Assembly (NCBI GenBank): GCA_007117945.1 | Contig: SKTN01000138.1 | Span: forward strand, 1-41,367 | From: Nitriliruptoraceae bacterium | GTDB lineage: Bacteria > Actinomycetota > Nitriliruptoria > Nitriliruptorales > Nitriliruptoraceae | DNA length: 41,367 nucleotides | Direction: 5' to 3' | Translations under genes and position numbers: made by a program | Shown here: positions 9,333-29,464 of the stretch, in pieces | Layout: every line of letters begins with the position of its first letter | Position numbering within the stretch: the stretch's first letter is position 1 | Notes under the pieces: model-generated | What the model was told of the DNA's origin: nothing | Databases searched by the model: none | The model's input: only the letters and a program-made list of their open reading frames with translations

Positions 9333-9386
9333 CCCCGGCCCACCACCGCGACCAACCCCACGATGCACCCCGAGGGAGGTGTCCCC

Positions 9387-10541
9387 ATGCGTGTCCGTCT
9401 CCGCAACCCCGACCGCACCGTCGAGGTCGAGGGACCCTGCACCGTGGCCGAGCTCCTCGACCACCTCGACGTCCTGCCCCACACCGTGCTGGTCCTCAAC
9501 GACCGCGCCCTGGTCACCGCCGACCACCTGCTCCCGGCGGACGCCGAGGTGGAGGTCCGCCCCGTCATCAGCGGCGGGGCGGAGGGTGCCCCGCGCTGCG
9601 CGGTGTGCCGTGCGCCGGCGGTGCTGGAGGAACGGCGGCACCGTGCCGCGTGGTGCGCGGACCACCTCGCCGACCACGTGCAGAACCAGATCCGCAAGGC
9701 GATCGACCACCCGCCCGGGCTGCCGGCGGGGGAGCGGATGTGCTCCTACGCCGACCGGCTCCTGGTCGCGGTCAGCGGTGGCAAGGACTCCCTGGCGCTG
9801 TGGGACGCCCTGACGGAGATGGGCTACCGGGTCGACGGGCTGTACGTGGGGCTCGGCATCGGGGGCTACTCGGAGCGCAGCCGCGAGGTGTGTGCGGCCT
9901 TCGCTGCCGAGCGGGGCCTCGACCTGCACGTGGTCGAGCTCGCCGAGGAGTACGGCTACACCACACCCTCGGGTGCGGGGGCCGCGGGGCGCTCCACCTG
10001 CGGGGTGTGCGGGCTGTCGAAGCGCTACGCCTTCAACCGCGTGGCCGTGGACCACGGCTACGACGTGCTGGCCACCGGCCACAACCTCGACGACGAGGCC
10101 GCGACCCTGCTGGGCAACGTGCTGCGCTGGCAGGAGTCCTTCCTCGCCCGGCAGCACCCTGTCCTGCCCGCCACCGGCGCCAACCAGGTCCGCAAGATCA
10201 AGCCGATGTACCGGCTCTCCGAGCGGGAGAGCGCCGCCTACTGCGTGGTGCGGGGCATCGACTACGTGGTGGAGGAGTGCCCCCTGGTGGACGGCAATAC
10301 CGGCCACGAGCTCAAGGCCGCCTTCGACCTGCTGGAGGCGGCGTCGCCGGGCCTCAAGGCCCAGTTCCTGTTCGGGTTCTACGACCGTCAGGACCGCCTC
10401 GTGGACCCGCGCGCCGAGGAGGAGGTCGAGCTCGCCGAGTGCGGCAGCTGCGGCATGCCGACCACGGGTGCGGTGTGCGCCTTCTGCCGGCAGCGCGAGC
10501 TGATCGTCCAGGCCCTGCCCGTGCGCACGGGTGCCAGCTGA
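9387..10541 (+). CDS. Fusion protein: ThiS/MoaD/TtuB-like beta-grasp domain (ends ...VISGG) + TtuA-type tRNA 2-thiolase (PP-loop ATPase with two zinc fingers)
   Basis: The first ~64 aa are beta-grasp-like and end in GG (codons 9573-9578), with no stop. Then follow CAVC..CADH, the PP-loop SGGKDS (9774-9791), CGVCGLSKRY, ATGHNLDDEAA and CGSC..CAFC (10440-10487). GGGAGG lies 7 nt before the ATG at 9387. Confidence 0.8.
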   Translation: MRVRLRNPDRTVEVEGPCTVAELLDHLDVLPHTVLVLNDRALVTADHLLPADAEVEVRPVISGGAEGAPRCAVCRAPAVLEERRHRAAWCADHLADHVQNQIRKAIDHPPGLPAGERMCSYADRLLVAVSGGKDSLALWDALTEMGYRVDGLYVGLGIGGYSERSREVCAAFAAERGLDLHVVELAEEYGYTTPSGAGAAGRSTCGVCGLSKRYAFNRVAVDHGYDVLATGHNLDDEAATLLGNVLRWQESFLARQHPVLPATGANQVRKIKPMYRLSERESAAYCVVRGIDYVVEECPLVDGNTGHELKAAFDLLEAASPGLKAQFLFGFYDRQDRLVDPRAEEEVELAECGSCGMPTTGAVCAFCRQRELIVQALPVRTGAS

Positions 10542-11515
10542 TGGACACTGACCCGCACGCCGCTCCGGAGCACGCGGGCGGTCCGGTCCTGCCCGGTACC
10601 GATGCGCCCCTGGCTCCGGGTGAGCTGGTCCTGCTCCTCGACCGCAAGGGGCGGCGCTACCTCGTCGAGCTCGAGCCCGGTGCCCAGTGGCACAGCCACG
10701 GTGGACTGGTCGAGCACGACGCCATCATCGGCAGCAGCGAGGGCACCGCGATCCGCACCAGCAAGGCGATGGAGGTCCTGGCGCTGCGGCCCACCCGCGA
10801 GGACTACGTGCTCAAGATGCGGCGCGGCGCCCAGGTGGTGTACGCCAAGGACCAGGCGATGATCGTCGCCCTGGCCGACGTGCGCCCCGGGGCCACGGTG
10901 ATCGAGGCCGGTGCGGGCTCCGGCGCCCTGACCCTGGCGTTGCTGGCGGCCGTGGGGCCCACGGGGCGGGTCGTGTCCTTCGAGCGCCGCGAGGACCACG
11001 CCCGGATCGCGCGCCGCAACGTCGAGCGTTTCCACGGGCAGCTGCCCGACAACTGGGACCTCGAGGTCGACGACGTCGTCACGGGGCTGGCGGGGCGGCG
11101 CGCCCACCGGGTGGTGCTGGACCTGCTGGAGCCCTGGTCGGCCGTGGCGGCGGTCACCGAGGTGCTGCCGCCGGGCGGGATCGTGTGCGCCTACACCCCC
11201 GGCGTGCCCCAGGTGATGCGCCTCACCGACGAGCTGTGGGCTTCGGGGCGGTTCACCGAGGTCCGCACCAGCGAGACCCTGGTGCGGCCCTGGGACGTCG
11301 ATGGTCTGGCGGTGCGTCCCGCGCACCGGATGGTGGCCCACACCGCCTTCCTGACCACGGCCCGCAGGGTCCCCGCGCGTGAGGAGGGCGGCCCGGCCCG
11401 CCGTCGCCGCAAGGCCGACACCGGGGGCACCGTGGACTGGGCGGCGGGCGACCGTGCCCGGGACGCCGCCGGGGCGCCCCCTGCCGGCGAGGCTCGGGAG
11501 GGATCGCGCGGATGA
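10541..11515 (+). CDS. trmI: tRNA (adenine58-N1)-methyltransferase
   Basis: Gcd14/TrmI-like: RGAQVVYAKDQAMIVALADVRPGATVIEAGAGSGALTLALL, then VRPAHRMVAHTAFL. The ATG overlaps the upstream TGA (TGATG, 10539-10543). The position upstream of arc matches Rv2118c-Rv2115c synteny in mycobacteria. Confidence 0.85.
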   Translation: MDTDPHAAPEHAGGPVLPGTDAPLAPGELVLLLDRKGRRYLVELEPGAQWHSHGGLVEHDAIIGSSEGTAIRTSKAMEVLALRPTREDYVLKMRRGAQVVYAKDQAMIVALADVRPGATVIEAGAGSGALTLALLAAVGPTGRVVSFERREDHARIARRNVERFHGQLPDNWDLEVDDVVTGLAGRRAHRVVLDLLEPWSAVAAVTEVLPPGGIVCAYTPGVPQVMRLTDELWASGRFTEVRTSETLVRPWDVDGLAVRPAHRMVAHTAFLTTARRVPAREEGGPARRRRKADTGGTVDWAAGDRARDAAGAPPAGEAREGSRG

Positions 11516-11967: not shown

Positions 11968-13827
11968 GTGGTGGGTCCACAGCGGGACGGCGAGGACCGG
12001 GAGCAGGCTGCGGGTGACCGGGGCTTCGACCCGCCTGGCCTCGATCCGGATCCCCTGGCCTCGGGCGGCGGCGCCTTCGACCAGCTACCGGTCCCGCAGG
12101 CCGAGCCGGCGGACGAGAACGACCCCGACGCCGTGCTCGCGGAGCTCAAGGTGCTGCGCGAGGAGGCTGAGCTCCTGCGTCGTCGCCTGGCCAGCGCCCC
12201 GACCCGGATCCGGGTACTCGAGGAGCGCCTGCTGGAGACCTAGGGCCAGCTGCATTCGGCCACGGCCCAGAACGCGAAGCTCGCCGAGACCCTGCGCAGC
12301 GCCCGCGACCAGCTCACCACGCTGAAGGAGGAGGTCGAGCGCCTCTCCGCCCCACCCCAGACCTACGGCACCTACCTCGGTGTCGGTGCGGACGAGGACA
12401 CCCTCACGGTGATGGTCTCGGGCCGCAAGCTCGAGGTCTCCACCAGCCCCGAGGTCGAGGTGGCCGACCTCGAACCCGGCCAGGAGGTCCGGCTCAACGA
12501 CGCCATGAACGTCGTGGCGGTCGGCGGGTTCGAGGACCGCGGCGAGGTGGTGACCATCGCCGAACTGCTCGGCGACGGCCGGGTGCTGGTGGTGGGCCGC
12601 ACCGACGACGAGCGGGTGGTCACCCTCGCCACGCCGCTGCGGGAGCTGCCCCTGAAGGCCGGGGACTCCCTGCTCCTCGACCCCCGCGCGAACACCGCCC
12701 TGGAGCGCATCCCCAAGGCCGAGGTGGAGCAGCTGATCCTCGAGCAGGTCCCCGACGTCACCTACGAGCAGATCGGCGGCCTCGGCGACCAGGTCGAGGC
12801 GATCCGTGACGCCGTCGAGCTGCCCTACCTCCACGCGGAGCTGTTCGTCGAGCACGAGCTGCGCGCACCGAAGGGGATCCTGCTCTACGGCCCGCCCGGC
12901 TGCGGCAAGACCATGATCGCCAAGGCCGTGGCCAACTCCCTGGCGCAGCGCGTGGCGGAGCGCACGGGTCGCACCGACGTGACCAGCTACTTCCTCAACG
13001 TCAAGGGTCCGGAGCTGCTCAACAAGTACGTCGGCGAGACCGAGCGCCAGATCCGGCTGATCTTCCAGCGGGCCCGGGAGAAGTCGGCCCAGGGCTTCCC
13101 CGTCATCGTGTTCTTCGACGAGATGGAGTCGCTGTTCCGCACCCGCGGCTCCGGGGTGTCCTCCGACGTGGAGACCACGATCGTGCCCCAGCTGCTCGCG
13201 GAGATCGACGGGGTGGAGAGCCTCAAGGACGTGGTGGTGATCGGCGCCTCCAACCGCGAGGACATGATCGACCCCGCGATCCTGCGCCCCGGGCGGCTCG
13301 ACGTGAAGATCAAGGTGGACCGCCCGGGCGCGGACGCCGCCCGCGAGGTGTTCGCGATCTACCTCCACGAGCGCCTGCCCCTGGCCGAGGAGGAGGTGCG
13401 CACCGCCGGCGACCCGGCACGGGCGATCGCGGCGATGATCGACCGCACCGTGGAGAAGATGTACGCCACCGACCCGGACAACGAGTTCCTCGAGGTCACC
13501 TACGCCAACGGGGAGAAGGAGGTCCTGTACTTCAAGGACTTCAACTCCGGGGCGATGATCGAGAACGTGGTGGCCCGCGCCAAGAAGCTCGCGATCAAGC
13601 GGCTGCTGGACACCGGCGACCGGGGCCTGCGCACCCGGGACCTGCTCACCGCGATCCGCGACGAGTTCCGTGAGAACGAGGACCTGCCCAACACCACCAA
13701 CCCCGACGACTGGGCGCGGATCAGCGGCAAGAAGGGCGAGCGGATCGTCTACGTGCGCACGTTGCTGTCGGGCCAGGACACGCCGGGCCGCTCGATCGAG
13801 AACGTCAACCCCGGGCAGTACCTGTGA
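11968..13827 (+). pseudogene. arc: Full-length ARC/Mpa proteasomal AAA+ ATPase reading frame, interrupted by in-frame TAG at 12241-12243
   Basis: GAGGAGG SD followed by GTG at 11968 or 11971. Frame-1 translation gives an acidic N-terminus and a coiled coil (AELKVLREEAELLRRRL...[48 protein letters not shown]), continuous with the OB and AAA domains. About 619 codons, similar to Mpa (609 aa). Confidence 0.7.
12409..13827 (+). CDS. arc: ARC/Mpa AAA+ ATPase, uninterrupted downstream ORF (OB domains + AAA module)
   Basis: Walker A GPPGCGKT, Walker [36 protein letters not shown], and a C-terminal ...PGQYL proteasome-docking tail. The first canonical starts after the TAG are GTG 12406 and ATG 12409. 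Confidence 0.85.
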
Positions 13828-13837
13828 ACGGCAGGCG

Positions 13838-15325
13838 ATGAGCACGCCCAAGTACGTCGGTGTGGAGACCGAGTACGGCATCACCGTCGACGGTCCGAAC
13901 CCCGTGAACCCGGTCCTGGCCTCCTCGATGGTGGTGGGGGCCTACCGCGCCGCCGGGGACGACGACGTGCGCTGGGACCACACCGACGAGTCGCCCCAGC
14001 GTGACGCCCGGGTGGGCACGGTGCCGGAACCGGGCGAGCCGATGATCGACGACGAGCTCGGGCTGGCCAACACCGTGCTCACCAACGGCGCACGCTTCTA
14101 CGTCGACCACGCCCACCCGGAGTACGCCACCCCGGAGTGCACCAACGCCCGCGACCTGGTGGTGTGGGACCGGGCCGGTGAGCTGATCCTGGCCGACGCC
14201 GCCGAGCGGGCGGCGGCCAGCCTGCCGGCGGGCAGCCGGGTGCTGATCCACAAGAACAACACCGACGGCAAGGGGGCGGCCTACGGCACCCACGAGAACT
14301 ACCTCGTGCCCCGTACCGTGCCCTTCGGGCGCCTGACCCGCCAGCTCCTGCCCTTCTTCGTCAGCCGGCCGCTGTACACCGGTGCCGGCCGCATCGGCAG
14401 CGAACTGGACGGGCGCGTGGGCTTCCAGCTCACCCAGCGCGCCGACTTCTTCGAGGTGGAGGTGGGGCTCGAGACCACCCTCAAGCGCCCGCTGATGAAC
14501 ACCCGGGACGAGCCCCACGCCGACCCGGAGCGCTACCGCCGTCTCCACGTGATCAACGGCGACGCGAACCTGTGCGAGGTGGCGACCTTCCTCAAGGTCG
14601 GCACGATGCTGCTCCTGCTCGACGCGATCGAGGACGACGCGCTGCCGGCGGTGCCCGTGCTCGCCGAGCCCGTGGCCGCCTTCCACGCCGTCAGCCACGA
14701 CCTGACCGCTCGGGTGGAGCTGCCTCTGGAGGACGGGGGCACGATCACCCCCCTGGCGCTGCAACGCTGGTACCTCGATGCCGTCCGCCGCTACGTCAAG
14801 GACCGTGACCAGCCCCTGGACGCCACCGGTGAGGAGGTGCTGACCCGCTGGGAGGCCGTGCTGGCCACCGCGGAGGAGGACCCCCGTCTGCTGGCGGGCC
14901 AGGTGGACTGGGCCACCAAGCTGGAACTGCTCGAGGGCTACCGGGCTCGCCACGGGCTCGAGTGGACCAGCGACCGGCTCAAGATGGTCGACCTGCAGTA
15001 CCACGACGTGCGGCGGGACAAGGGGCTCTACCACCGCCTGGCCGCCCGGGGACGCATCGAGCGGCTGGTCGGTGACGACGAGGTGGCGGCCGCGGTACGC
15101 ACCCCGCCCGAGGACACCCGCGCCTGGTTCCGCGGCGAGTGCATCCGCCGGTTCCGGTCCCAGGTGGTCGCCGCGGGCTGGGACGCGTTGATCCTGGACC
15201 CGGGGCAGGACAGCCTGCAGCGCGTGCCGATGATGGAGCCCGGCCGGGGGACCCGGGTGCAGGTCGGCGCGCTCCTCGACGAGGTGGAGGACGTCGCCGG
15301 CCTCCTCGCACGCCTCCGGGCGTGA
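13838..15325 (+). CDS. dop: Pup deamidase/depupylase
   Basis: [32 protein letters not shown]. Has a Dop-type loop insertion (RWDHTDESPQRDARVGTVPEPGEPMIDDELG) that is absent from the pafA paralogue. Located between arc and pup. Confidence 0.9.
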   Translation: MSTPKYVGVETEYGITVDGPNPVNPVLASSMVVGAYRAAGDDDVRWDHTDESPQRDARVGTVPEPGEPMIDDELGLANTVLTNGARFYVDHAHPEYATPECTNARDLVVWDRAGELILADAAERAAASLPAGSRVLIHKNNTDGKGAAYGTHENYLVPRTVPFGRLTRQLLPFFVSRPLYTGAGRIGSELDGRVGFQLTQRADFFEVEVGLETTLKRPLMNTRDEPHADPERYRRLHVINGDANLCEVATFLKVGTMLLLLDAIEDDALPAVPVLAEPVAAFHAVSHDLTARVELPLEDGGTITPLALQRWYLDAVRRYVKDRDQPLDATGEEVLTRWEAVLATAEEDPRLLAGQVDWATKLELLEGYRARHGLEWTSDRLKMVDLQYHDVRRDKGLYHRLAARGRIERLVGDDEVAAAVRTPPEDTRAWFRGECIRRFRSQVVAAGWDALILDPGQDSLQRVPMMEPGRGTRVQVGALLDEVEDVAGLLARLRA

Positions 15326-15393: not shown

Positions 15394-15399
15394 TAGGCT
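15394..15399 (+). promoter_or_regulatory. Putative -10 hexamer TAGGCT upstream of pup
   Basis: TANNNT-type box 30 nt before the pup ATG, in the 104-nt dop-pup spacer. The same hexamer recurs upstream of four other genes here. Confidence 0.3.
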
Positions 15400-15429
15400 G
15401 CGCCTCTCCGATCGTCAGGCGGACACACC

Positions 15430-15633
15430 ATGAGCGACGGCGGTCAGGCCCACCGGCGTAGCAGCGACCAGGCCGATACGCAGGCCGAGGAGCACGCGCC
15501 CGTCGAGGGCGAGGGTGCCACGGCCCGTGAGGTGGTCGACGACGTCGACGAACTCCTCGACGAGATCGACGACGTCCTCGAGGAGAACGCCGAGGAGTTC
15601 GTGCGCGGGTACGTCCAGAAGGGCGGCCAGTAG
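15430..15633 (+). CDS. pup: Prokaryotic ubiquitin-like protein Pup
   Basis: 67 aa, acidic and disordered-looking. C-terminus ...EEFVRGYVQKGGQ (a GGQ end, which requires Dop deamidation). Confidence 0.95.
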   Translation: MSDGGQAHRRSSDQADTQAEEHAPVEGEGATAREVVDDVDELLDEIDDVLEENAEEFVRGYVQKGGQ

Positions 15634-15711
15634 TCCCGCCGCCGTCGGAGCCACCCGGCGTGCTGCCGGTGGTGCTGGCATCCCGGGTGCCGCTGCCTAC
15701 CCTGGCTGGTC

Positions 15712-17847
15712 ATGGATCTCCCGGACGCCCTCGAGCGGCCGGCGGTGCGGTGGACGTTGCTCGCCGTCGGTGGACTGCTCCTCCTGCACCTGGTCGCCTG
15801 GGTGAGCCTGCTCGGCCTGCAACGCAGCCACACCGACGCGGTGCTGGCCGGCGTCGAGGTCGATGCGGTCGCGGTCGGCGGGATGGACCGGGCGGGCCTC
15901 GTGGCGGCGGTGGAGGACCGGGCCACACAGCGTCTCGCCCAGCCGGTGCGCGTGGTCACCAGCGCCACCACGGACACCGACGAGCCCCTGGCGGCACTGC
16001 AGGACGCCCGTGCCGCGCTCGGCCAGCGGGCCGACACGCCCTCCGCGGTCGAGGAGGCCTGGGCGAAGGGTCGACGCGGCCTGCGGCGGGCCCTGGCCGA
16101 TCAGCTGCGGGTCCGTACCGGTGACACCCTGCACGTGGTCCTGCCCGTCCACATCGACGGCGACGAGCTGGAGGCGTGGGCGTCGACGGCCGCCCTGGAG
16201 CTGTCCATCCCGCCACGGGACGGTGCCATCGCGCTCTCGGGCGACGACGGCGACGTGGACATCGAGGTGACCGACGCGCGACACGGCACCGAGGTGGAGG
16301 CGGCCGAGGTGCGCGAGCAGGTCCGCGAGGCCACGATCCGCTCCGTGGGCCCCGTACGGGTCGAGGTGGCTGCGGAGCAGCTCGAGCCGGACATCACGCA
16401 GGTGGACGTCGACGCGGCGCTGGCCGACACCGAGCTCGCCGTGTCCGCAGCCGTCGAGCTCGACCACCCCTCCACCGCCGGTGAGGACCTGGTCCTCGCG
16501 CCCACCGACCTCGCCGAGGTGCTCCACGTCATCGCGGACCGGGAGGCCGCCGAGGGCGCCCGCCTGCAGGTCACGACCGATCCCGACCGGCTCGCCGACC
16601 ACCTCGGTGAGGAGCAGCTCGCGGCCCTGTCACCCGAGCGGGTCGAGGCGTCCCTGGCACTGGTCGACGGCGCGGTCGAGCGCACCGAGAGCGCCCGCGG
16701 CTTCGAGCTCGACCTGGCAGCGACGACCGCCACCGTGCTGGACCTGGCGTCGCAGGATGCGGACCGCAGCGCCGAGCTCCCCGGCGAGATCTTCGAGCCG
16801 GAGATCACCACCGAGGACGTCGAGGCGGTGGCCGGCGAGGCCGAGGTGCTGGTCAGCGCCCCCGTGACCCTCACCAACCCCTCCGCCGCAGACGACCTGG
16901 AGCTGTCACCCACCGCCCTCTCCGAGGTGCTGGACGTCGAGGTGGTGGTCGACGATGACGGGCCGTCCCTGCGGGTGGGATCCTCGGCCGACCGGCTCAC
17001 GGGGTGGCTCGGCGAGGACGGCGTGGCAGCGTTGGAGAGGAGCCCCGCGCCTGCCGACGCCAACGTCGTCGGCGGCCAACTGGTCGTGGACGGCGGCACA
17101 CCAGGGTTCTCCGTGGACACCGATGCCACGGCCGAGGTGGTGGTCGACCGGGCGCGGGACCCCGACGACCGGTCCGCAGAGCTACCCGGCGACACCACCC
17201 ACGCGGACGTCTCCCCGCAGACCTACGAGGATCTCGGGATCACCGAGGTCGTGTCCCAGTTCACCACCGATCTGACCCCGGGGCAGTCGCGCAACACCAA
17301 CATCCGCCTGGCCGCCGACCACATCGACGGCGACCGCATCCTGCCGGGCGAGAGCTACTCGCTGAACCAGGGCATCGGTCAGCGCACCGCTGCACGGGGC
17401 TTCGTCGCGAACGGTTTCATCCAGGACGGCGAGCTGATCAGCGTCACCGGCGGTGGCGTCAGCCAGATGGGCACCACCTTCTTCAACGCCGCCTGGTTCG
17501 CCGGCATCCGGATCGATGAGTTCCACCCCCACTCCCTGTACTTCGCCCGCTACCCCGAGGGGCGCGAGGCGACCCTGTCCTGGGGCACCCTCGACGTCGT
17601 GGTGCACAACGACTCGCCCTACGCGATCGAGATCTTCACCTCGCACAGCGCCTCGCACGTGACGGTGTACCTCGCGAGCACCAGCTGGGCGGCGGTCGAC
17701 ACCTGGACCGGGGAGCGCTACGACCTCGTCGAGGGCGACGAACGGGACGGGTTCACCGTCGACTTCGGCCGCGAGATCACCTACCCCGACGGCTCCACCA
17801 CCTCCGAGAGCTACTCCCACACCTACCGCCCGGCGAACGGCGACTGA
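15712..17847 (+). CDS. VanW/YoaR-family membrane-anchored protein with repeated PG_binding_4-like modules
   Basis: N-terminal TM (WTLLAVGGLLLLHLVAWVSLLGL). Two or three internally similar ~125-aa modules end in D.DDRSAELPG(E/D). C-terminal VanW domain (NIRLAADHIDGDRILPGESYSLNQ..., GGGVSQMGTTFFNAAW). No SD; TACCCT (15698-15703) sits 8 nt before the ATG, so the mRNA may be leaderless. Confidence 0.75.
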   Translation: MDLPDALERPAVRWTLLAVGGLLLLHLVAWVSLLGLQRSHTDAVLAGVEVDAVAVGGMDRAGLVAAVEDRATQRLAQPVRVVTSATTDTDEPLAALQDARAALGQRADTPSAVEEAWAKGRRGLRRALADQLRVRTGDTLHVVLPVHIDGDELEAWASTAALELSIPPRDGAIALSGDDGDVDIEVTDARHGTEVEAAEVREQVREATIRSVGPVRVEVAAEQLEPDITQVDVDAALADTELAVSAAVELDHPSTAGEDLVLAPTDLAEVLHVIADREAAEGARLQVTTDPDRLADHLGEEQLAALSPERVEASLALVDGAVERTESARGFELDLAATTATVLDLASQDADRSAELPGEIFEPEITTEDVEAVAGEAEVLVSAPVTLTNPSAADDLELSPTALSEVLDVEVVVDDDGPSLRVGSSADRLTGWLGEDGVAALERSPAPADANVVGGQLVVDGGTPGFSVDTDATAEVVVDRARDPDDRSAELPGDTTHADVSPQTYEDLGITEVVSQFTTDLTPGQSRNTNIRLAADHIDGDRILPGESYSLNQGIGQRTAARGFVANGFIQDGELISVTGGGVSQMGTTFFNAAWFAGIRIDEFHPHSLYFARYPEGREATLSWGTLDVVVHNDSPYAIEIFTSHSASHVTVYLASTSWAAVDTWTGERYDLVEGDERDGFTVDFGREITYPDGSTTSESYSHTYRPANGD

Positions 17848-17899
17848 CCCGCGCGCGGCGCCGCCGACGCCACGGGGTGCACCACGCCGTGCCCGCCGG

Positions 17900-19060
17900 T
17901 CAGGCCACCGGCGGGGCGAACCGGAGCCAGCTGCCGTGCGCCTGCACCCGGCCCAGCGCCGCGTCGTGGCGCTGCCCGTCGACCCAGCGGGTGGTCGCGA
18001 TCACGAAGCCCGGCTGGTCGGGATCGGGCGGGCCGAGCTGCCGGGCGACGAGCTCCGCGAAGGGCGCCAGGAAGTGGCCCTCGAGCCCGACCCGCCACAG
18101 CGCCCGCCGGGCACCGATGCGATCGAGGAGCGCCTCGAAGTGCTCCCGGTCCCCGGGGGCGAGGTAGGCCAGGGTGGCACTGTGCAGCACGACGACCTGG
18201 AGGTCCGGCTCGATCGCGGTGACGACGGGCTCGAGGAGCTCGAGCAGGTCACCCTGGTGCAGTTCGATGTCGTCGTGCGCGGCCGCCAGGGTCAGTGCCG
18301 CGTCGAGCCGGGCCAGCCGGTCGACGTGCTCGGGCCAGACGCAGGCGCGCAGCCACGCACGGTCGTCCGGATCGCCGACCCGCAGCGGCGTGCGGTCGAT
18401 GCCGATCCGTCGCGCCACCGGTGCCAGGTCCGTGCCCGGCACCTGGTCCAGGCAGCGCGTCTCGAGCACCACCGGCGGCGGGGATCCCGCACCGGGGACC
18501 GACGCGGTCGCTGACCGGGTCACGGCGTCGCCGGCAGCGGCCACGAGACGGTGGACGTAGCGATCGAGGTGCAACAGCAGCCCGGCGCTGGTCCCGACCT
18601 CGACCAGGGCGAGTCGGCGGGTGGGCGCTGCACCACGCTCCGGGCCCGCTCGGCGCTGGAGCCACGACACGGCCGCGCGCTGGCCGGCGGTGCGACCCGG
18701 TTCGTTGGTCTGGGTCGAGCGGGCCTGGAGCCGATCCACGATCGCGTCACGATGGCGGTCCAACACCGCGAGGAACGCGGCCGTGGCCGCGGCATCGGGC
18801 GCCCGGTCACCCCCGACGGAGGGGTAGTAGGCCGCCAGCGCGCCCTGCTCGACCCCGCGGAGCAGCAGGTCGTGCACCGCCGCGAAGACCAGCGTCGCCC
18901 GCCGTTGCGCGAGCGGCGCCAGGTCGAGGATGCCGGCGGCGTCCTCGTCGCCTGCCAGCGCACCGCTGAGGTGGGCGTACAGCGGCGAGGTGGGACGGGC
19001 CTCCTGCGCGAAGGTGGCGAAGCGCAGGGCCGCCGTGGTGTCGTCCTGGGTGGGATGCAT
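17900..19060 (-). CDS. DUF2332-family protein (function unknown)
   Basis: N-terminus LRFATFAQEARPTSPLYAHLSGALAGDEDAAGILDLAPLAQRRATLVFAAVHDLLL is typical of DUF2332 (recognised from memory). GGGAGG lies 8 nt before the ATG. Confidence 0.6.
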   Translation of the reverse strand: MHPTQDDTTAALRFATFAQEARPTSPLYAHLSGALAGDEDAAGILDLAPLAQRRATLVFAAVHDLLLRGVEQGALAAYYPSVGGDRAPDAAATAAFLAVLDRHRDAIVDRLQARSTQTNEPGRTAGQRAAVSWLQRRAGPERGAAPTRRLALVEVGTSAGLLLHLDRYVHRLVAAAGDAVTRSATASVPGAGSPPPVVLETRCLDQVPGTDLAPVARRIGIDRTPLRVGDPDDRAWLRACVWPEHVDRLARLDAALTLAAAHDDIELHQGDLLELLEPVVTAIEPDLQVVVLHSATLAYLAPGDREHFEALLDRIGARRALWRVGLEGHFLAPFAELVARQLGPPDPDQPGFVIATTRWVDGQRHDAALGRVQAHGSWLRFAPPVA

Positions 19061-19327
19061 CCGTGCGACCTCCCGGTCGCGCAGCGTAGGCGTGGACCTC
19101 GCGGCAGCCGCCCGTCACCCCACGTCCCCGTGACATCGATGCACCCGGTTCGGCGGCGGTGCCCGCACATCGATGCTTGCATCGTGCCGGGAGGCCGCTA
19201 GCGTTCCGCCGGTACTACCGCGGTAGGTGGTTGGGAGGCCCGGCCGGGGGGTCCCGTCGCCGGTCCTGAGTACCTACCGATCGTCGTGGCCGCACGGTCA
19301 CGGAGACGGAACGATCAAGGAGTCAGC

Positions 19328-20335
19328 ATGACCGTGTTCAAGCGCAAGCGCAGCCGCACGCTTCGTCTTGCGGCAGCGGTGGCAGCGGGTGCCATGATCC
19401 TCGCCGCGTGCAACGGCGACGAGGACGTAGCCGACGACGACAACGGGGAGGCGGCGGCCGAGGACCGCGTCTTCCTGACGATGGCCACGGGCTCGACCGG
19501 TGGGACCTACTTCCCGCTCGGTGGCGCGATGGCCGGGGTGTGGAACGACAACATCGACGAGGTCCGGGTCAACACCCAGTCCTCCGGTGCCTCCGTGGAG
19601 AACCTGCGCCTGCTGCAGTCGGGCGAGGTCGACATGGTCCTCGCGGTCAACGGTGTCGCTGCCGACGCCATCGCCGGTGAGGGGGAGTTCGAGGGCGAGG
19701 ACTACGACTTCGTCACCATCGGCAACATCTACGGTGAGGTCACCCAGATCGTCGCCACCGCGGAGTCCGGCATCACCTCGATCGCCGACCTCGAGGGTGC
19801 CCGCGTCGCGCTCGGCCCCCCGGGATCCGGCACCGAGGTGATCGCCCGCTTCATCCTCGAGACCCAGGGCATCGATCCCGACAGCGACATCGAGGCGTTC
19901 AACGACACCTTCGGTGAGGCCGCCGACGGTCTGCGTGACGGCCGCCTCGACGCCGCCTTCGCCATCCTCGCGCTGCCGGCAGGTTCCATCGAGGAGGTCG
20001 CGACCTCCGTGGACATCAACATCGTCTCCATCGAGGGTGACCTCATGGACACCCTGCTGGACGCCGATCCGACCCTGTCCTCCCTGGACATCCCGGCCGG
20101 GACCTACCCCGGTCAGGACGACGACGCGGTCACCGTGACCAACTGGGCGACGCTCTACGCCCCGGCGGATCTCGACGAGGACCTCGTCTACGAGATGACC
20201 CGGGTGCTGTTCACGGAGACGGAGTCGATCGCCAACGCGATCGCCGTCGGTGAGCAGATCCAGATCGACACCGCCCTGGACGGCAACGACATCGACGTGC
20301 ACCCCGGTGCACAGCGCTTCTACGACGAGAACTAG
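19328..20335 (+). CDS. TAXI-family TRAP transporter solute-binding lipoprotein
   Basis: Signal peptide plus lipobox (AMILAAC). TGSTGGTYFPLGGAMAGVWN and LQSGEVDMVL are TAXI hallmarks. AAGGAG lies 5 nt before the ATG. The mature protein is very acidic. Confidence 0.85.
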   Translation: MTVFKRKRSRTLRLAAAVAAGAMILAACNGDEDVADDDNGEAAAEDRVFLTMATGSTGGTYFPLGGAMAGVWNDNIDEVRVNTQSSGASVENLRLLQSGEVDMVLAVNGVAADAIAGEGEFEGEDYDFVTIGNIYGEVTQIVATAESGITSIADLEGARVALGPPGSGTEVIARFILETQGIDPDSDIEAFNDTFGEAADGLRDGRLDAAFAILALPAGSIEEVATSVDINIVSIEGDLMDTLLDADPTLSSLDIPAGTYPGQDDDAVTVTNWATLYAPADLDEDLVYEMTRVLFTETESIANAIAVGEQIQIDTALDGNDIDVHPGAQRFYDEN

Positions 20336-20904
20336 TGCCAGACACCGGCGCAGCGGGTGGGACGCGGCTCACGCCGTCGTCCCCACCTGCGCGCCGTCGC
20401 AGCATCCCGGTGGTGGCCGTCACGCTCGTGGCGGCCACCACCGTCGTCGTGGCCCTGGTCCTCGTCGGACGCGGGGGCGGGGAGCGGCCGGTACTGGAGC
20501 TCGGCGATCCCTCCACCGGCGAGCTGCTCTACGAGCGACCCGTCGAGGTGGGGGAGGAGCTCGTGCTCACCCACACCCACTCGGTCACCCGTCGACCGGT
20601 GATCGAGCGGTTCTCCGTGGACGACGACCACGGCCTGACCCTCGAGTCGATGGAGTTCGACGAGCCCGGGCCCAACCTGCCCACGGGCCCGGAGCGGTTC
20701 GGGGAGCAGATGACCTCGTTCGAGACGGTGGATGGCGTCTATCGTGTCGACCACCACGGGTACCCGATCGGGAGCGTGACGCTGCGCACGGGAGGCGCGG
20801 ATGTCGACCACACGCTCACCTTCGGTGACGGTGAGCAGGTCCGCCTGCTCGAACTGACCAGGGCCGGGGGACCGGTCGAGCTGCGGGTCGCAGGGGAGAG
20901 GTGA
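20335..20904 (+). CDS. DUF1850 domain protein (TAXI-TRAP associated)
   Basis: Single N-terminal TM followed by ...LVLTHTHSVTRRPVIERFSVDDDHGLTLESMEFD... Located between the TAXI SBP and the fused permease, as is usual for DUF1850. The GTG overlaps the SBP stop (TAGTG). Confidence 0.65.
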   Translation: MPDTGAAGGTRLTPSSPPARRRSIPVVAVTLVAATTVVVALVLVGRGGGERPVLELGDPSTGELLYERPVEVGEELVLTHTHSVTRRPVIERFSVDDDHGLTLESMEFDEPGPNLPTGPERFGEQMTSFETVDGVYRVDHHGYPIGSVTLRTGGADVDHTLTFGDGEQVRLLELTRAGGPVELRVAGER

Positions 20905-20965
20905 GCACCGCAGCACCGCCGAGGTGTCCGAGCGCCCTGCACGGGGTGGCAGTGGGAGGAGCGAG

Positions 20966-23350
20966 ATGAGCGAGTCCAGGGACCAGGCCCGTTCCGGCGA
21001 GGGCGCGCCCGAGGAGCCGGCGAAGCAGCGCAAGAGCTCCAGCGCCTTCGATGAGGCCAGGGGACAGGTCGCCGACCTGCCCGACGAGCTCCGTGAGGAG
21101 CTCGAGGCCGACATCGCCGAGCTCGAGGAGCTCAGCTTCGCCGACGTCTCCGGTGGGACCCGCGAGGACATGCGCCCCACCTGGCGCTTCATCGTCTTCG
21201 GTGCCGCGCTGATCCTGAGCCTCTTCCACCTCTACACGGCCATGTTCGGCGTGCTCCCCGGCCTGCAGCAGCGCTCGTTCCACCTCGGCATGGGCCTCGC
21301 CCTGGTGTACCTGCTCTACCCGGGTCGGCAGGACCTCGAGGGTCGGGACCTGCTGCGCAGCTGGGTCACCATGGCGGCTGCCGGCGGCGTCCTCGCCCTG
21401 ATGTACGTACGCGAGGTGGCCGACTGGTACATCGTGGTCGGTGGGGCCATCGTCGTGCTGGCCGTCTTCGCCTCGCGGCACCTGCCGCTGCGGATCGGGG
21501 GGATCCCCCTCGGTGACGTGGCGCTGGCGGGGCTGTCGGTGGGTGCCGGCGGCTACATCTTCAACAACTGGAACGAGATCGGCCGCGCCGTCGGCGCGGA
21601 GACCGACTTCACCGTCGGGCTCGCGGCCGTCGGAGTGCTGCTGGTGCTGGTGGCCACCCAGCGGGTGATCGGCACGCCGTTGACCGTGGTGGCCTCCGCC
21701 GCCCTGCTGTTCGCCTACTTCGGCCAGTCCATGCCCGGCTTCCTGGCGCACGCCGGGTTCTCCGTGCGCCGCATCGTCTCCACGATGTTCCTCGGCACCG
21801 AGGCGGTGTTCGGCACCCCGATCCAGGTGTCGTCGACCTTCATCTACATCTTCATGATCTTCGCCGCCCTCCTGCAGCGCACGGGGATGGAGCGCTTCTT
21901 CACCCAACTGGCCTTCGGGCTCACGGGGTGGATGACCGGTGGCACCGCGAAGGTCGGCGTGCTGACCTCCGCCTTCTCGGGCACGATCACCGGCAGCTCG
22001 GTGGCCAACACGGTGTCCAACGGTGCCTTCACCATCCCGATGATGAAGAAGTCGGGGTACAAGGGGGAGTTCGCCGGCGCCGTCGAGGCGGCCTCCTCCA
22101 CCGGTGGGCAGCTCGCCCCACCCATCATGGGCGCCGCGGCCTTCATCATGATCGAGCTGACCGGCCTGCCCTACTCCACGATCATCCGGGCGGCGGCGAT
22201 CCCCGCGATCCTGTTCTTCACCGCCCAGTTCATCGTGATCCACTTCGAGTCCAAGCGGCTGGGCATCATGGGGCTGCCCAAGCACAAGCTGCCCCAGCCG
22301 CGGCAGCTGATGCTCACCAAGGGCTACCTGCTGATCCCCATCGGGGTCATCTTCTTCCTCCTGGCCCAGGGACGCTCGGCGATCCGCTCCGCGCTCTACG
22401 CGGTGTTCGCCGTGGTGATCATCAACATCGTGGTGCAGCTGATCTCCGCGGTCTTCGGCCGCTGGAAGGACATGGAGGACCGGCTCAGCTTCCTCGGCCT
22501 GCTCGACGCCCTGGTCGACGCGGCGCGCATCGCCCTGCCGATCATCGTCGCCTGTGCCGCCGCCGGGATGGTCGCGGGGGTGATCACCCTCACCGGGGTC
22601 GGCCTGCAGCTGGTCAGCGGGCTGCTGTCCCTGGCCGGTCAGACCCTGATCCTGACGATGTTCTTCTCCATGATCGCCTGCCTGGTGCTGGGCATCGGCC
22701 TGCCCACCACGGCGAACTACGTGATCACGGCGACCCTGGTGGCGCCGGCGCTGCTGTTCTTCGACGCCGTGCCGGTGATCGCGGCCCACATGTTCGTGTA
22801 CTACTTCGGCATCATGGCCGACATCACCCCGCCGGTGTGCCTGGCCTCCTACGCGGCCTCGGGGATCGCCCAGTCGAACCCCCTGAAGACCGGCGTGCAG
22901 TCGGTGAAGATCGCCATCGGTGGCTTCCTCCTGCCCTACATGTTCGTGCTCTCGCCCCAGCTGCTGCTGGAGGAGGCCACGATCGCCCAGGGCGTCCTGG
23001 CGGCGATCAGTGCGCTGATCGGTATCACCGCCGTGGGACTGGCGGTGGTGGGCTATATCGATCGTCGCATCAACTGGCTGATCCGTGCCGTGCTGCTCGC
23101 CTCGGGGCTGTCGCTGCTGAGCGCCGACCCGCTGCTCGACGCCGCCGGCCTGATCACCTTCATCGCGATCTACCTGTGGCAGCGGGTCACGGGCGACATC
23201 GGCCGACGGCGGGAGCAGCAGGCTGCAGCGGCGGGGGCAGCCGGCACGGCCGACGGTGGCGACCAACGCGCCGGTGAGGAACCAACCGCCGAGACGACGC
23301 AGCGCGGCGACAGCGACAGCACACGTGCGGACGACGACGAACAGAGGTGA
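20966..23350 (+). CDS. TRAP transporter fused permease (4TM/12TM, TAXI type)
   Basis: About 790 aa, polytopic. FHLYTAMFG, GTAKVGVLTSAFSGTITGSSVANTVSNGAFTIPMMKKSGY, ATLVAPAL. ATG at 20966 is preceded by GGGAGGAG. Acidic low-complexity N- and C-terminal tails. Confidence 0.85.
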   Translation: MSESRDQARSGEGAPEEPAKQRKSSSAFDEARGQVADLPDELREELEADIAELEELSFADVSGGTREDMRPTWRFIVFGAALILSLFHLYTAMFGVLPGLQQRSFHLGMGLALVYLLYPGRQDLEGRDLLRSWVTMAAAGGVLALMYVREVADWYIVVGGAIVVLAVFASRHLPLRIGGIPLGDVALAGLSVGAGGYIFNNWNEIGRAVGAETDFTVGLAAVGVLLVLVATQRVIGTPLTVVASAALLFAYFGQSMPGFLAHAGFSVRRIVSTMFLGTEAVFGTPIQVSSTFIYIFMIFAALLQRTGMERFFTQLAFGLTGWMTGGTAKVGVLTSAFSGTITGSSVANTVSNGAFTIPMMKKSGYKGEFAGAVEAASSTGGQLAPPIMGAAAFIMIELTGLPYSTIIRAAAIPAILFFTAQFIVIHFESKRLGIMGLPKHKLPQPRQLMLTKGYLLIPIGVIFFLLAQGRSAIRSALYAVFAVVIINIVVQLISAVFGRWKDMEDRLSFLGLLDALVDAARIALPIIVACAAAGMVAGVITLTGVGLQLVSGLLSLAGQTLILTMFFSMIACLVLGIGLPTTANYVITATLVAPALLFFDAVPVIAAHMFVYYFGIMADITPPVCLASYAASGIAQSNPLKTGVQSVKIAIGGFLLPYMFVLSPQLLLEEATIAQGVLAAISALIGITAVGLAVVGYIDRRINWLIRAVLLASGLSLLSADPLLDAAGLITFIAIYLWQRVTGDIGRRREQQAAAAGAAGTADGGDQRAGEEPTAETTQRGDSDSTRADDDEQR

Positions 23351-23790
23351 GCCAAGTGCGGATCCTGGTCGGCTACAACGCATCGAAGGAGAGCGAGGGG
23401 GCGGTGATCGAGGGGGCGGTCGCCGCCCGCGCCCGGGGGGTGCCCCTCCACCTGCTGTGGGTCCACATCCACGAGCCGGGTGACTCCTTCCAGCAGGTCG
23501 AACGCGACACCCACGAGGGCGTCGATCTCCAGGAGGCCCTCGACGAACTGGCCGAGAAGCTGCGCGCCAGCGGGGTGGAGGTCTTCACCGACCTGCGCCA
23601 CGGCCTCAAGACCCAGGCGGCGGACACCATCCTGGATGTGGCCGAGGAGGTCGACGCGCAACTCATCGTGCTCGGGTGGCGACCCCGCTCGCGGGTCACC
23701 GAGGCCGTGCTCGGTGGTGTGGCGCGCGAGGTGCTGCGTCGGACCACCCGGCCGGTGCTCTCCGTGCCCATCGAGGCCCACGACGGCTGA
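23347..23790 (+). CDS. Universal stress protein (UspA family)
   Basis: ILVGYNASKES..., AEEVDAQLIVLGWRPRSRVTEAVLGGVAREVLRRTTRPVLSVP. The GTG overlaps the permease stop (GTGA); an alternative GTG is at 23356. Confidence 0.8.
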   Translation: MSQVRILVGYNASKESEGAVIEGAVAARARGVPLHLLWVHIHEPGDSFQQVERDTHEGVDLQEALDELAEKLRASGVEVFTDLRHGLKTQAADTILDVAEEVDAQLIVLGWRPRSRVTEAVLGGVAREVLRRTTRPVLSVPIEAHDG

Positions 23791-23874
23791 ACGCACCGCG
23801 CGTCCCGCGGGGCGACCGCCGGGTCGTACGCCGGAGGGCACCGGGTGGTGGCGCCGGTCCCAGCCCGTGCGGGT

Positions 23875-27454: not shown

Positions 27455-29464
27455 TCATGCGACCGGCGCGGTGGGCGCAGCCCCCGGTCCGCTCCCGCTG
27501 GTCTCGAGGACGGTCACATCCACCACCCGGGTGGTGGCCTGGTGTCCGAGCAGCCGCTCGAGGTGCGAGCGCTGCGCGGCGGCCCAGAGGGGGCGCAACG
27601 AGGGGTCGACGCGCGCCCAGCTGCGCAACGCCGGACTGTGGCGCAGGGCGCGCTCCAGGTACAGCAGGGCCCGGTCGTGGTCCTCCAGCGTGACGAAACA
27701 GCACGCCACGGTGTAGGCGTCACGGTGATCGAGCCGGGGGTTCTGCAGGAGCGCCCACAGCAGCTGGCGTCCGCGGGTCGAACTCGGCGCGATCTCCCGG
27801 GTGGCACCACCGGGGGCAGGGGCGGGCGGCTGCTGCGCCACGGGCATCTCGCCCTCGCACGCCCCGCGCGTGAGCAGGATGCCCGCCAGCAGCAGCTGCG
27901 TGGAGGGCTCCATCATCTGCGCGAACGCACGGACCGGTTGGGGCACCCCGGGGTCACCCTCGGCGCACAGCGCTGCGAGGTCGGCCTCCAGCTGCCGGAC
28001 GGTCCGTTCCGCATCGTCGAGGTCAGCGGTGGCGGCCGTCGACCCGTCCGGGAGGCAGAGGAGGTGGCGGTTGAGCTCCGCGGCGGCCAGGGCGTACGCC
28101 GCACGGAGCTGGATCGGCCGCGGCCGGTCGGTGGAACGCGTCGCGAGCCGGCGCAGCTGCGCGACCGCCTCGTCGTAGCGCAGTCGGTCGAGGTTGCCGG
28201 TCGACATCGAACGGAACATGTCGGCCATGGCCCGGCCCAGGATCGCCCCACCGTTGTCCGGGTCGAGCTCCAGTGCACGGTCGTGGAGCCGGATGCCGTC
28301 GGCCACCAGGCCGGTGTCCACCAGTCGTCCGGCGGCGACCTGCAGGGCGACGCTGACGGGGTCGCTGGCGCCCCACGCGACCCGCTGCAGCCGCTCGCTG
28401 CCGAAGTGGTGACAGGTGACCACGGCCAGCACCCACGCGGCGGCGGCGTCCAACGACGCCTGGAACCACGCCTGTGCCGTGGCGTCGTCCCCTGACGCGT
28501 GTGCGCTCGGTGCCTGGTCGGCCGCTGGCGCGGGCGTACGGAGCTCCTCGGCGAGCAGCGGACGGTGCCAGTGGTCCGCCGAGAGGCTCCCGAGCAGGCT
28601 CCGGTTGTGCCGAACCGTCAGCTCGAAGCGGCCGTCCTCGCCGACACGGAGGTGGCCGGCCACCCGGTAGCGCTCGCGGGGCAGCAGCGGGCGGACCAGG
28701 GCGAGGGCGGCCCGGAGCACCGGGTTGGGGGCCAGCTCCTCGACCCCCGAACCCGTGAGCGCCTCGTTGTCGAGGCCGTCGACCAGTCGGAGCCCATCCG
28801 GGCGCTTGGCCGCAGCCTCGGCGATCGCCACCCGCAACCGCGCACTGACCCCACCCCCGTCCATGCCACTGGCAGCGGTCAGCTCCGTCACCTCGATCTG
28901 CGGGTCGCGCACCACCGCCAGTGCGACGAGCAGGTGCACACCCAGCAGCAGGACCAGCGCGGTCCACAGGTGGAAGCGGACGGCAGGGGTGTCGGTCGGG
29001 GGCACCGGGAGACGGCGCAGGGACCACAGCAGACAGGTGACCGCGACGGCCAGGATCACGGGCGGCAGCACCCGCCACCCACCGCCTCGCTCCTCGAGGA
29101 GCAGCCACCGCACGCGGAGCCGCTGCGTGTGGCTGCCGATCGGCACCGTCGCTGCCAGGGTGCGCACCCCGAGGAGCGCCACGGCGAGCGCGACGGCCAG
29201 CTCACCCAGCAGGCGGAGCAGCGGCTGGAGTACCGCGTCGAGCAGTTGCCGCCAGGCGGTCGTGAGCACGTCGAGCGCCGCAGGTGGGTCGTGCTCCACA
29301 CCCTCCGGGCTGAGCAGGTCCTGCTGGACCTCGCCGCTGCCGTCACCGGGCCCCGTGACCGCCCCGGCCGGCACGACCGCCAGCACCAGCGCGAGGGCGG
29401 TCAGCAGGACGAGCGGCGCCCACGCCGGCTGCCGGCGGGAGCGATCCTGACCGCGTGCGCCCAC
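27455..29464 (-). CDS. Uncharacterised polytopic membrane protein with C-terminal TPR-like repeats
   Basis: 669 aa. GTG is preceded by GGGAGG with a 6-nt spacer. About 4-5 hydrophobic segments fall in the first ~200 aa. TPR-like stretches include RLHDRALELDPDN and AYTVACCFVTLEDHDRALLYLERALRHSPALRSWARVDPSLRPL. High GC3 throughout. Confidence 0.6.
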   Translation of the reverse strand: MGARGQDRSRRQPAWAPLVLLTALALVLAVVPAGAVTGPGDGSGEVQQDLLSPEGVEHDPPAALDVLTTAWRQLLDAVLQPLLRLLGELAVALAVALLGVRTLAATVPIGSHTQRLRVRWLLLEERGGGWRVLPPVILAVAVTCLLWSLRRLPVPPTDTPAVRFHLWTALVLLLGVHLLVALAVVRDPQIEVTELTAASGMDGGGVSARLRVAIAEAAAKRPDGLRLVDGLDNEALTGSGVEELAPNPVLRAALALVRPLLPRERYRVAGHLRVGEDGRFELTVRHNRSLLGSLSADHWHRPLLAEELRTPAPAADQAPSAHASGDDATAQAWFQASLDAAAAWVLAVVTCHHFGSERLQRVAWGASDPVSVALQVAAGRLVDTGLVADGIRLHDRALELDPDNGGAILGRAMADMFRSMSTGNLDRLRYDEAVAQLRRLATRSTDRPRPIQLRAAYALAAAELNRHLLCLPDGSTAATADLDDAERTVRQLEADLAALCAEGDPGVPQPVRAFAQMMEPSTQLLLAGILLTRGACEGEMPVAQQPPAPAPGGATREIAPSSTRGRQLLWALLQNPRLDHRDAYTVACCFVTLEDHDRALLYLERALRHSPALRSWARVDPSLRPLWAAAQRSHLERLLGHQATTRVVDVTVLETSGSGPGAAPTAPVA

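Follow-up and report, generated by a model that had tools for sequence, protein, structure and literature searches.

A TtuB-TtuA fusion in a Nitriliruptoraceae bacterium, probably the precursor of a tRNA sulfur carrier and its client thiolase

A free C-terminal carboxylate is chemically required for a ubiquitin-like sulfur carrier to be adenylated and thiocarboxylated by an E1-like enzyme (PMC3980101). Carriers whose Gly-Gly pair is first made with further residues attached have been described in several pathways. Mycobacterium tuberculosis MoaX, a MoaD-MoaE fusion, is cut between Gly82 and Ser83 and, if left uncleaved, shows no activity (PMC4326299), and the MoaD-MoaE fusion of Deinococcus (DR2607) is cleaved by the JAMM peptidase DR0402 (PMC8832034). 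QbsD trims QbsE, and for actinobacterial CxnE, which has ten residues after its Gly-Gly, trimming by CxnF followed by activation by MoeZ has been proposed (PMC5925218). In Thermus, deletion of the JAMM gene results in aberrant TtuB conjugates and lowers thiouridine by approximately 50% (PMC3980101), while the 1-methyladenosine made by TrmI at tRNA position 58 (m1A58) is a positive determinant that speeds 2-thiolation of position 54 (PMC7912444, PMC6418473). The neighbourhood of ThiS and PP-loop genes, and MoaD-MoaE fusions, have been noted before (PMC2948915); our literature searches found no published description of a fusion between the carrier TtuB and the tRNA thiolase TtuA. Here we describe such a fusion, ttuBA, encoded in a stretch of 41,367 nucleotides (hereafter the window) from a Nitriliruptoraceae bacterium (GenBank assembly GCA_007117945.1, contig SKTN01000138.1, positions 1 to 41,367 of the forward strand).

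The gene is a single uninterrupted open reading frame (ORF) of 384 codons on the forward strand (window 9387-10541), running from an ATG at 9387 to a TGA at 10539-10541, and direct reading of the sequence places a Shine-Dalgarno element, GGAGG, at 9375-9379 (+), 7 nt 5' of the ATG. An upstream in-frame ATG at 9363 would lengthen the product by eight residues, and its use appears unlikely because the homologues too begin at the MRVRL of the 9387 start. Overall, the layout is that of a Thermus-type TtuB (residues 1-64, 9387-9578, +) followed by a linker of six residues and a Thermus-type TtuA from nearly its first residue (residues 71-384 with the stop codon, 9597-10541, +). The codons after Gly63-Gly64 (9573-9578) are GCG GAG GGT GCC CCG CGC TGC, with no stop among them; hence the primary translation product has no free C-terminal Gly-Gly carboxylate, its chain runs on into TtuA, and that carboxylate would become available only after proteolysis. 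The linker, AEGAPR (residues 65-70, 9579-9596, +), has no in-frame start codon and contains the predicted processing site, Gly64/Ala65. Two other routes to separate products were considered and rejected: TtuA cannot be made from an internal start, there being no ATG, GTG or TTG between V55 and C71 in this gene, and the other frames have no nearby stop that would permit a frameshift product.

The carrier half is TtuB by fold and by sequence, and aligns with its Thermus orthologue from end to end. Residues 1-64 alone exceed the cut-offs of two Pfam profiles, ThiS (23.6 bits against 22.5) and SAMP2 (27.1 bits against 27), and the alignments to ThiS (Pfam) and SAMP2 (NCBIfam) reach the last profile column. 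The top match among Protein Data Bank (PDB) sequences is T. thermophilus TtuB (5ztb_E, E 5e-4, residues 2-64), in which, as in the carrier domain with its terminal RPVISGG, ISGG forms the final residues; G63-G64 therefore align with the final columns of ThiS, SAMP2 and TtuB alike. An AlphaFold2 (AF2) model computed with 48 homologues has its strands (E) and helix (H) in beta-grasp order (E2-6, E9-13, H20-26, E34-38, E41-43, E54-59), and Foldseek aligned the whole model with TtuB chains at template-modelling scores of 0.82-0.90 (target-normalised) and root-mean-square deviations of 1.1-3.3 Å. Residues 61-66 are the sole low-confidence stretch, with a predicted local distance difference test score (pLDDT) below 50.

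The enzyme half is TtuA (TtcA family group II), judged by sequence and motifs. Residues 71-374 match T. thermophilus TtuA (5gha_A) with an E value of 3.9e-84 and 286 bits, Cys71 corresponding to Cys3 of TtuA; Pyrococcus TtuA scores 227 bits, the U34 thiolase NcsA about 65, and TilS and MnmA below 27. Among Pfam profiles, ATP_bind_3 is matched at 43 bits (cut-off 27) and TtuA_LIM_N at 26.4-26.7 bits, marginally below its cut-off of 27. The N-terminal zinc finger comprises C71, C74, C90 and H93 (CAVC at 71-74), the PP-loop SGGKDS occupies residues 130-135 (9774-9791, +) and the motif GHNLDDEA lies at residues 231-238. The ligands of the [4Fe-4S] cluster are C205 and C208 (9999-10010, +), within CGVCG 205-209, and C298 (10278-10280, +), within EECP 296-299, which align with Thermus ligands C130, C133 and C222; the C-terminal zinc finger is formed by C352, C355, C364 and C367 (10440-10487, +), within CGSC 352-355 and CAFC 364-367. 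Both zinc fingers, the PP-loop and the cluster cysteines are invariant in the alignment of 48 homologues. Hence the two halves are as the first-pass annotation had supposed from the letters alone: the N-terminal segment, which it had put forward as a beta-grasp carrier with an internal Gly-Gly and had left to profile and structure analysis, is a TtuB domain by profile, PDB match and model, and the remainder is a complete TtuA in which every motif listed was located.

Comparison with homologues confirms that the fusion is genuine and under selection, and not due to chance or sequencing artefact. Two more metagenome contigs encode the identical protein, and at least 119 further clusters (90% identity) from Nitriliruptoria, drawn from NCBI, JGI, ENA and Logan and with Egicoccus isolate genomes among them, match it over 97-100% of the fused length with 69-92% identity; an additional cluster (P0105) is a partial sequence with 90% coverage. 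Those homologues that carry a name belong to Nitriliruptoraceae, Nitriliruptor and Egicoccus, and automated JGI annotation labels both domains on at least one homologue (P0018). Across an alignment of 48 fused homologues, R58, P59, V60, S62, G63 and G64 never vary, and A65 hardly does. Mean pairwise identity is 71% in the TtuB domain, compared to 76% in TtuA, and this conservation indicates purifying selection on the carrier domain. Mean column identity reaches 93% in the tail (residues 56-64), the most conserved segment, compared to 68% in the linker, where constraint is lowest within the N-terminal half and length shifts by whole codons.

Apparent giant fusions of TtuB, TtuA and TrmI were also encountered, at locus L006 (7847-12217, a frame of 1457 codons) and in proteins P0123, P0128, P0132 and P0216 (the last of 687 residues). 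We rejected these triple fusions as out-of-frame read-through in error-prone assemblies; Arg/His-rich nonsense stands where the C-terminal zinc finger should be. Some clusters of the 50%-identity library are represented by entries of this kind, by which a survey of domain architectures could be misled. Separately, a Nitriliruptoraceae metagenome-assembled genome (MAG; L018, approximately 9900-10100) has an in-frame deletion, reading ...LDLPARTVPVIEEPRHRAAWCA..., by which the latter half of the TtuB domain is lost along with the Gly-Gly tail and the first zinc-finger cysteines; the gene may be decaying as a pseudogene, or the contig may be misassembled.

Nearly all TtuA homologues among the 50%-identity representatives are unfused, with their own residue 2 falling at residue 70 of the query, and few fused representatives are present in that library. 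The wider set of relatives comprised 80 loci, from a scan in which each species was represented by a single genome. All 80 matched from residue 1, as if the fusion were spread over many phyla, an impression that we rejected since tblastn had joined segments lying in different frames. Read frame by frame, the loci give the distribution of fused and split genes that the first-pass annotation had wished to see surveyed: 14 in-frame fusions, 52 loci with a separate ttuB that continues for 1-19 residues beyond the Gly-Gly, 13 with a stop directly after it, and one degenerate locus. The extended genes (examples are found at L016-L082) most commonly end in ISGG-X-X-stop, so that the TGA of ttuB overlaps the ATG of ttuA, as at L028 (10181-10206), where the junction reads GGG GGC GCA CGA TGA AGT GT. 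A one-base change in such an overlap suffices to merge the two frames, and the fusion arose in this way, through the merging of ttuB and ttuA, which normally overlap by 4 nt. The fusion is thus the extreme of a lineage-wide habit of producing TtuB as a precursor.

A tree built from the TtuA parts by neighbour joining, without bootstrap, places the fusions in two positions. Group A is a clade of Nitriliruptoria in which every member is fused, with a linker of the form GGA-x(1-3)-C, most often ending P-R/T-C, and devoid of methionine. Group B comprises unclassified Actinomycetota, is interleaved with split relatives (L020, L026), and has a linker that retains the Met-Lys/Arg-Cys start of TtuA (Thr-Lys-Cys at one locus). 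Because the junctions and the downstream synteny differ and the tree separates the two groups, we estimate from these comparisons that fusion occurred at least twice, independently. Between Gly64 and the first zinc ligand the linkers have 3-8 residues, mostly 4-6. In Group B fusions the old ttuA ATG persists, but the release of TtuB as a free protein still requires cleavage. Beside these loci stands a MAG labelled Bacillota (Centralia_MAG_45; L066, 10204-11992), in which ttuB with two residues beyond its Gly-Gly, ttuA and trmI are arranged in actinobacterial style; the remaining non-actinobacterial loci do not have this arrangement, and horizontal transfer or a mislabelled bin is possible.

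We consider it probable, from the comparative pattern, that the protein is a TtuB-TtuA polyprotein precursor that is cut after the Gly-Gly to release the carrier. An internal Gly-Gly cannot be adenylated, so proteolysis is needed if the domain is to act as a carrier at all. Release by cleavage is suggested because the tail is invariant while the residues beyond it drift, and cleavage is favoured further because close relatives pass back and forth between fusion and separate genes, and because fusion arose at least twice. With 52 of the 80 loci extended and 14 fused, trimming after the Gly-Gly would be needed in most of the clade; and because most split relatives also have residues after the Gly-Gly, a processing activity would already be present in the lineage. 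We infer the cleavage itself, the identities of the peptidase and of the E1-like enzyme, and the tRNA position that is modified. In the scheme that we propose, the bond between Gly64 and Ala65 would be cut by a peptidase whose gene lies elsewhere and which most probably belongs to the JAMM/MPN+ type, akin to Mec, QbsD, CxnF or DR0402. The products would be a TtuB of 64 residues, its Gly-Gly carboxylate now free, and a TtuA starting AEGAPRC. An E1-like enzyme of TtuC/MoeZ type would then adenylate and thiocarboxylate the free TtuB with sulfur from a cysteine desulfurase; in the T-loop of the tRNA, TtuA would adenylate U54 (or m5U54) at C2 and accept sulfur from TtuB-COSH, and the co-translated TrmI would make m1A58. 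Fusion would ensure a 1:1 output of carrier and enzyme, at no extra cost to a lineage that already trims beyond the Gly-Gly.

Several observations weigh against this proposal. A scan for the JAMM motif H[STAC]H-x6-9-[ST]xxD across the window and up to 10 kb from ttuA in the 80 loci produced no plausible JAMM protein, only nine spurious hits, whose frames were Dop-like or non-coding; the first-pass annotation had likewise seen no such peptidase near the gene. Nor does the window contain an E1, a rhodanese or a cysteine desulfurase. The NCBIfam model NF049949, an equivalog of Pyrococcus-type TtuA, is matched at 238 bits, below its cut-off of 450; this model covers one subgroup, and the missed cut-off weakens automatic naming rather than orthology to Thermus TtuA. 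In Thermotoga and Pyrococcus, TtuA reportedly uses sulfide bound to the [4Fe-4S] cluster and has no dedicated carrier, and PDB 5mkp and 5mkq, which are among the Foldseek matches of our AF2 model, are structures of such carrier-independent enzymes. A carrier is then not strictly needed for TtuA chemistry. Furthermore, reports of U54 thiolated at C2 come only from thermophiles, and 5-methyl-2-thiouridine there (m5s2U54) counts as one of their traits (PMC7912444). Nitriliruptoria, however, are apparently mesophilic haloalkaliphiles, and the marine and soil Acidimicrobiia, in which this operon is also common, are mostly not known as thermophiles. Position 54 is a target that we infer here from orthology and synteny.

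The absence of a peptidase gene from the 10-kb flanks and the carrier-independent enzymes also lend something to the view that the fusion stays uncleaved and that its beta-grasp domain, well conserved throughout, acts in cis and not as a sulfur carrier. It might then assist folding or solubility, make dimer or tRNA contacts, or gate the active site, while sulfide, or some other donor, supplied sulfur to the [4Fe-4S] cluster. We regard this as unlikely. Conservation peaks exactly at RPVISGG, the same tail as in the free TtuB of split relatives and of Thermus, and a structural role would not demand that tail; the linker, at 3-8 residues, is short and predicted to be disordered; and since close relatives switch from one state to the other, fused and split proteins should be equivalent in function. 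Cleavage after the Gly-Gly and a cis role without carrier function were the two alternatives that the first-pass annotation had offered, and these were the right pair, between which the comparative data favour cleavage.

The fused domain might instead be a dead remnant, TtuA being served by a separate carrier encoded elsewhere (ThiS, MoaD or CysO-like), and E1 enzymes and carriers can indeed be common to several pathways (PMC3980101, PMC11323500). Decay would be expected of a remnant, yet this domain is nearly as conserved as TtuA, its tail is invariant in the aligned homologues, and fusion recurs in the at least 119 clusters and in a second, independent clade; we give the idea little credence. 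As for an error of assembly or sequencing, a lost stop or a frameshift that joined two genes, metagenome assemblies do contain such errors, and L006 and several long representatives are visibly riddled with frameshifts. A stop or frameshift after the Gly-Gly codons, which the first-pass annotation had named as the result that would make two genes of one, is contradicted by the fused clusters, the Egicoccus isolates included, by the additional contigs with the same protein, and by 14 fused genome loci whose linkers differ in length by whole codons. On this sequence evidence an artefact is effectively refuted.

Immediately downstream lies trmI (10541-11515, +), encoding a tRNA (m1A58) methyltransferase that matches Pfam GCD14 (PF08704, 6e-29, 102 bits) and TrmI-like_N (PF14801, 2e-16, 60 bits). 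The TGA of ttuBA and the ATG of trmI share one base (TGATG), as the first-pass annotation had pointed out in proposing that the two genes are translationally coupled and form a dedicated T-loop operon. The comparison strengthens that idea: ttuB, ttuA and trmI are adjacent in 68 of the 80 loci, and since m1A58 promotes thiolation of position 54, this adjacency supports a candidate operon for positions 54 and 58 of the T-loop. Twelve loci have no adjacent trmI, one of them cut by a contig end and 11 in non-actinobacterial genomes (Nitrospirota, Dehalococcoidia, Bacillota, Rokubacteria and Acidobacteriota).

In the Actinomycetota loci, arc and the proteasome genes come after trmI. The window has the same order, and the position directly upstream of a Pup locus that had been claimed for the operon is borne out by arc/mpa, the proteasomal ATPase (11970-13827, start approximate, +; Pfam AAA and Prot_ATP_ID_OB), dop, the Pup deamidase/depupylase (13838-15325, +; Pfam Pup_ligase 2e-169), and pup, whose product ends GGQ (15397-15633, +; Pfam Pup 1e-22). 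Beyond an insert of approximately 8 kb come prcB, prcA, pafA, pafB, pafC, tatA, tatC and a helY-like helicase gene, and by gene content this is a standard actinobacterial Pup-proteasome region. Adjacency of trmI and arc is the ordinary actinobacterial order (M. tuberculosis Rv2118c-Rv2115c), and on current evidence the link between ttuBA and Pup is only positional. Dop hydrolyses the amide or isopeptide bond at the side chain of Pup's C-terminal Gln/Glu. We therefore dismissed Dop as the processing enzyme, because its target is not the backbone after a Gly-Gly. It is conceivable, if distinctly improbable, that the order ttuB-ttuA-trmI-arc-dop-pup, conserved across Actinomycetota, goes beyond synteny. 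The released TtuB would then be both a sulfur carrier and a protein modifier, as it is in Thermus, the peptidase which matures the fusion would also deconjugate TtuB, and TtuB-modified proteins or T-loop thiolation would be coordinated with the Pup-proteasome system; if so, actinobacteria would have two interacting ubiquitin-like systems and regulated s2U54 in mesophiles.

Some features of this neighbourhood are recorded for their own sake. At 12241-12243, within the N-terminal coiled coil of arc/mpa, the frame is interrupted by a TAG, whereas L001, a near-identical contig, reads AAG (Lys) there. The stop reflects either one wrong base in the assembly or a nonsense allele particular to this strain. 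In actinobacteria pup, prcB and prcA are usually contiguous. Here pup is separated by about 8 kb from prcB (23845), and the insert (15634-23844) encodes a VanW/PG_binding_4 protein, a DUF2332 protein, a tripartite ATP-independent periplasmic (TRAP)-type transporter set (NMT1_3, DUF1850, DctM) and a universal stress protein. When L001 (4877-9039) is compared with the window from 13838 onward, TtuBA and TrmI are 100% identical, ARC 94% and Dop 60%, and gene order diverges after Dop, a polysaccharide deacetylase gene preceding pup in L001; the divergence downstream of arc suggests a mosaic, through strain recombination or chimeric assembly. Finally, an ORF of 669 residues between pafA and pafB (27458-29464, -) has no significant Pfam match, and only a sub-threshold resemblance to TPR.

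This protein is a new architectural variant of the known TtuA/TtuB system, and the fusion itself is apparently undescribed. If cleaved, it would be a natural bacterial ubiquitin-like protein made as a linear fusion to its own client enzyme, in parallel with the ubiquitin-ribosomal fusions and MoaX, and would imply a deubiquitinase-like step in tRNA thiolation. The wider pattern may outweigh the fusion, since most of the actinobacterial TtuB sampled carry residues after the Gly-Gly, and the ttuB-ttuA-trmI arrangement is widespread in Acidimicrobiia, Nitriliruptoria and related, mostly non-thermophilic groups. It predicts 2-thiolation of position 54 in many mesophilic actinobacteria, genetically coupled to m1A58. 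Cultured strains of Egicoccus and Nitriliruptor exist, in which both predictions, cleavage and thiolation, are directly testable.

Among known systems, the eukaryotic proteins UBA52 and RPS27A have an N-terminal ubiquitin fused to a zinc-finger-bearing ribosomal protein and freed after its Gly-Gly, which gives stoichiometric co-production; their partners are not homologous to TtuA and their function is different, so the likeness is one of analogy only. HcyS and HcyD are a further pair of carrier precursor and JAMM peptidase. The TtuA/TtuB/TtuC system of Thermus, which makes m5s2U54 (5gha, 5ztb), is among the closest, both proteins being orthologous and the zinc fingers, PP-loop and cluster cysteines the same. 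There too ttuB lies directly upstream of ttuA and a functional link to TrmI and m1A58 exists (PMC3980101, PMC7912444). The Nitriliruptoraceae system differs from it in forming one polypeptide, whose internal Gly-Gly must be exposed by proteolysis, in having trmI in the operon with the Pup-proteasome genes alongside, and in belonging to a host class not known to be thermophilic. MoaX and DR2607 resemble it in that an N-terminal carrier is fused to the enzyme that accepts its sulfur, with Gly-Gly and a small residue at the junction; for them cleavage after the Gly-Gly has been demonstrated to be necessary (PMC4326299, PMC8832034), whereas for TtuB-TtuA it is predicted, and the recipient is tRNA here and molybdopterin there, with a carrier of another branch and a partner of another fold. 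The QbsE/QbsD and CxnE/CxnF pairs share with it, and with 52 of its 80 relatives, the residues after the Gly-Gly that would have to be removed before activation by an E1 (PMC5925218). Their JAMM gene lies within the cluster, in contrast to the 10-kb flanks described here; and while the extensions of those relatives amount to 1-19 residues, that of the protein described here is a whole enzyme.

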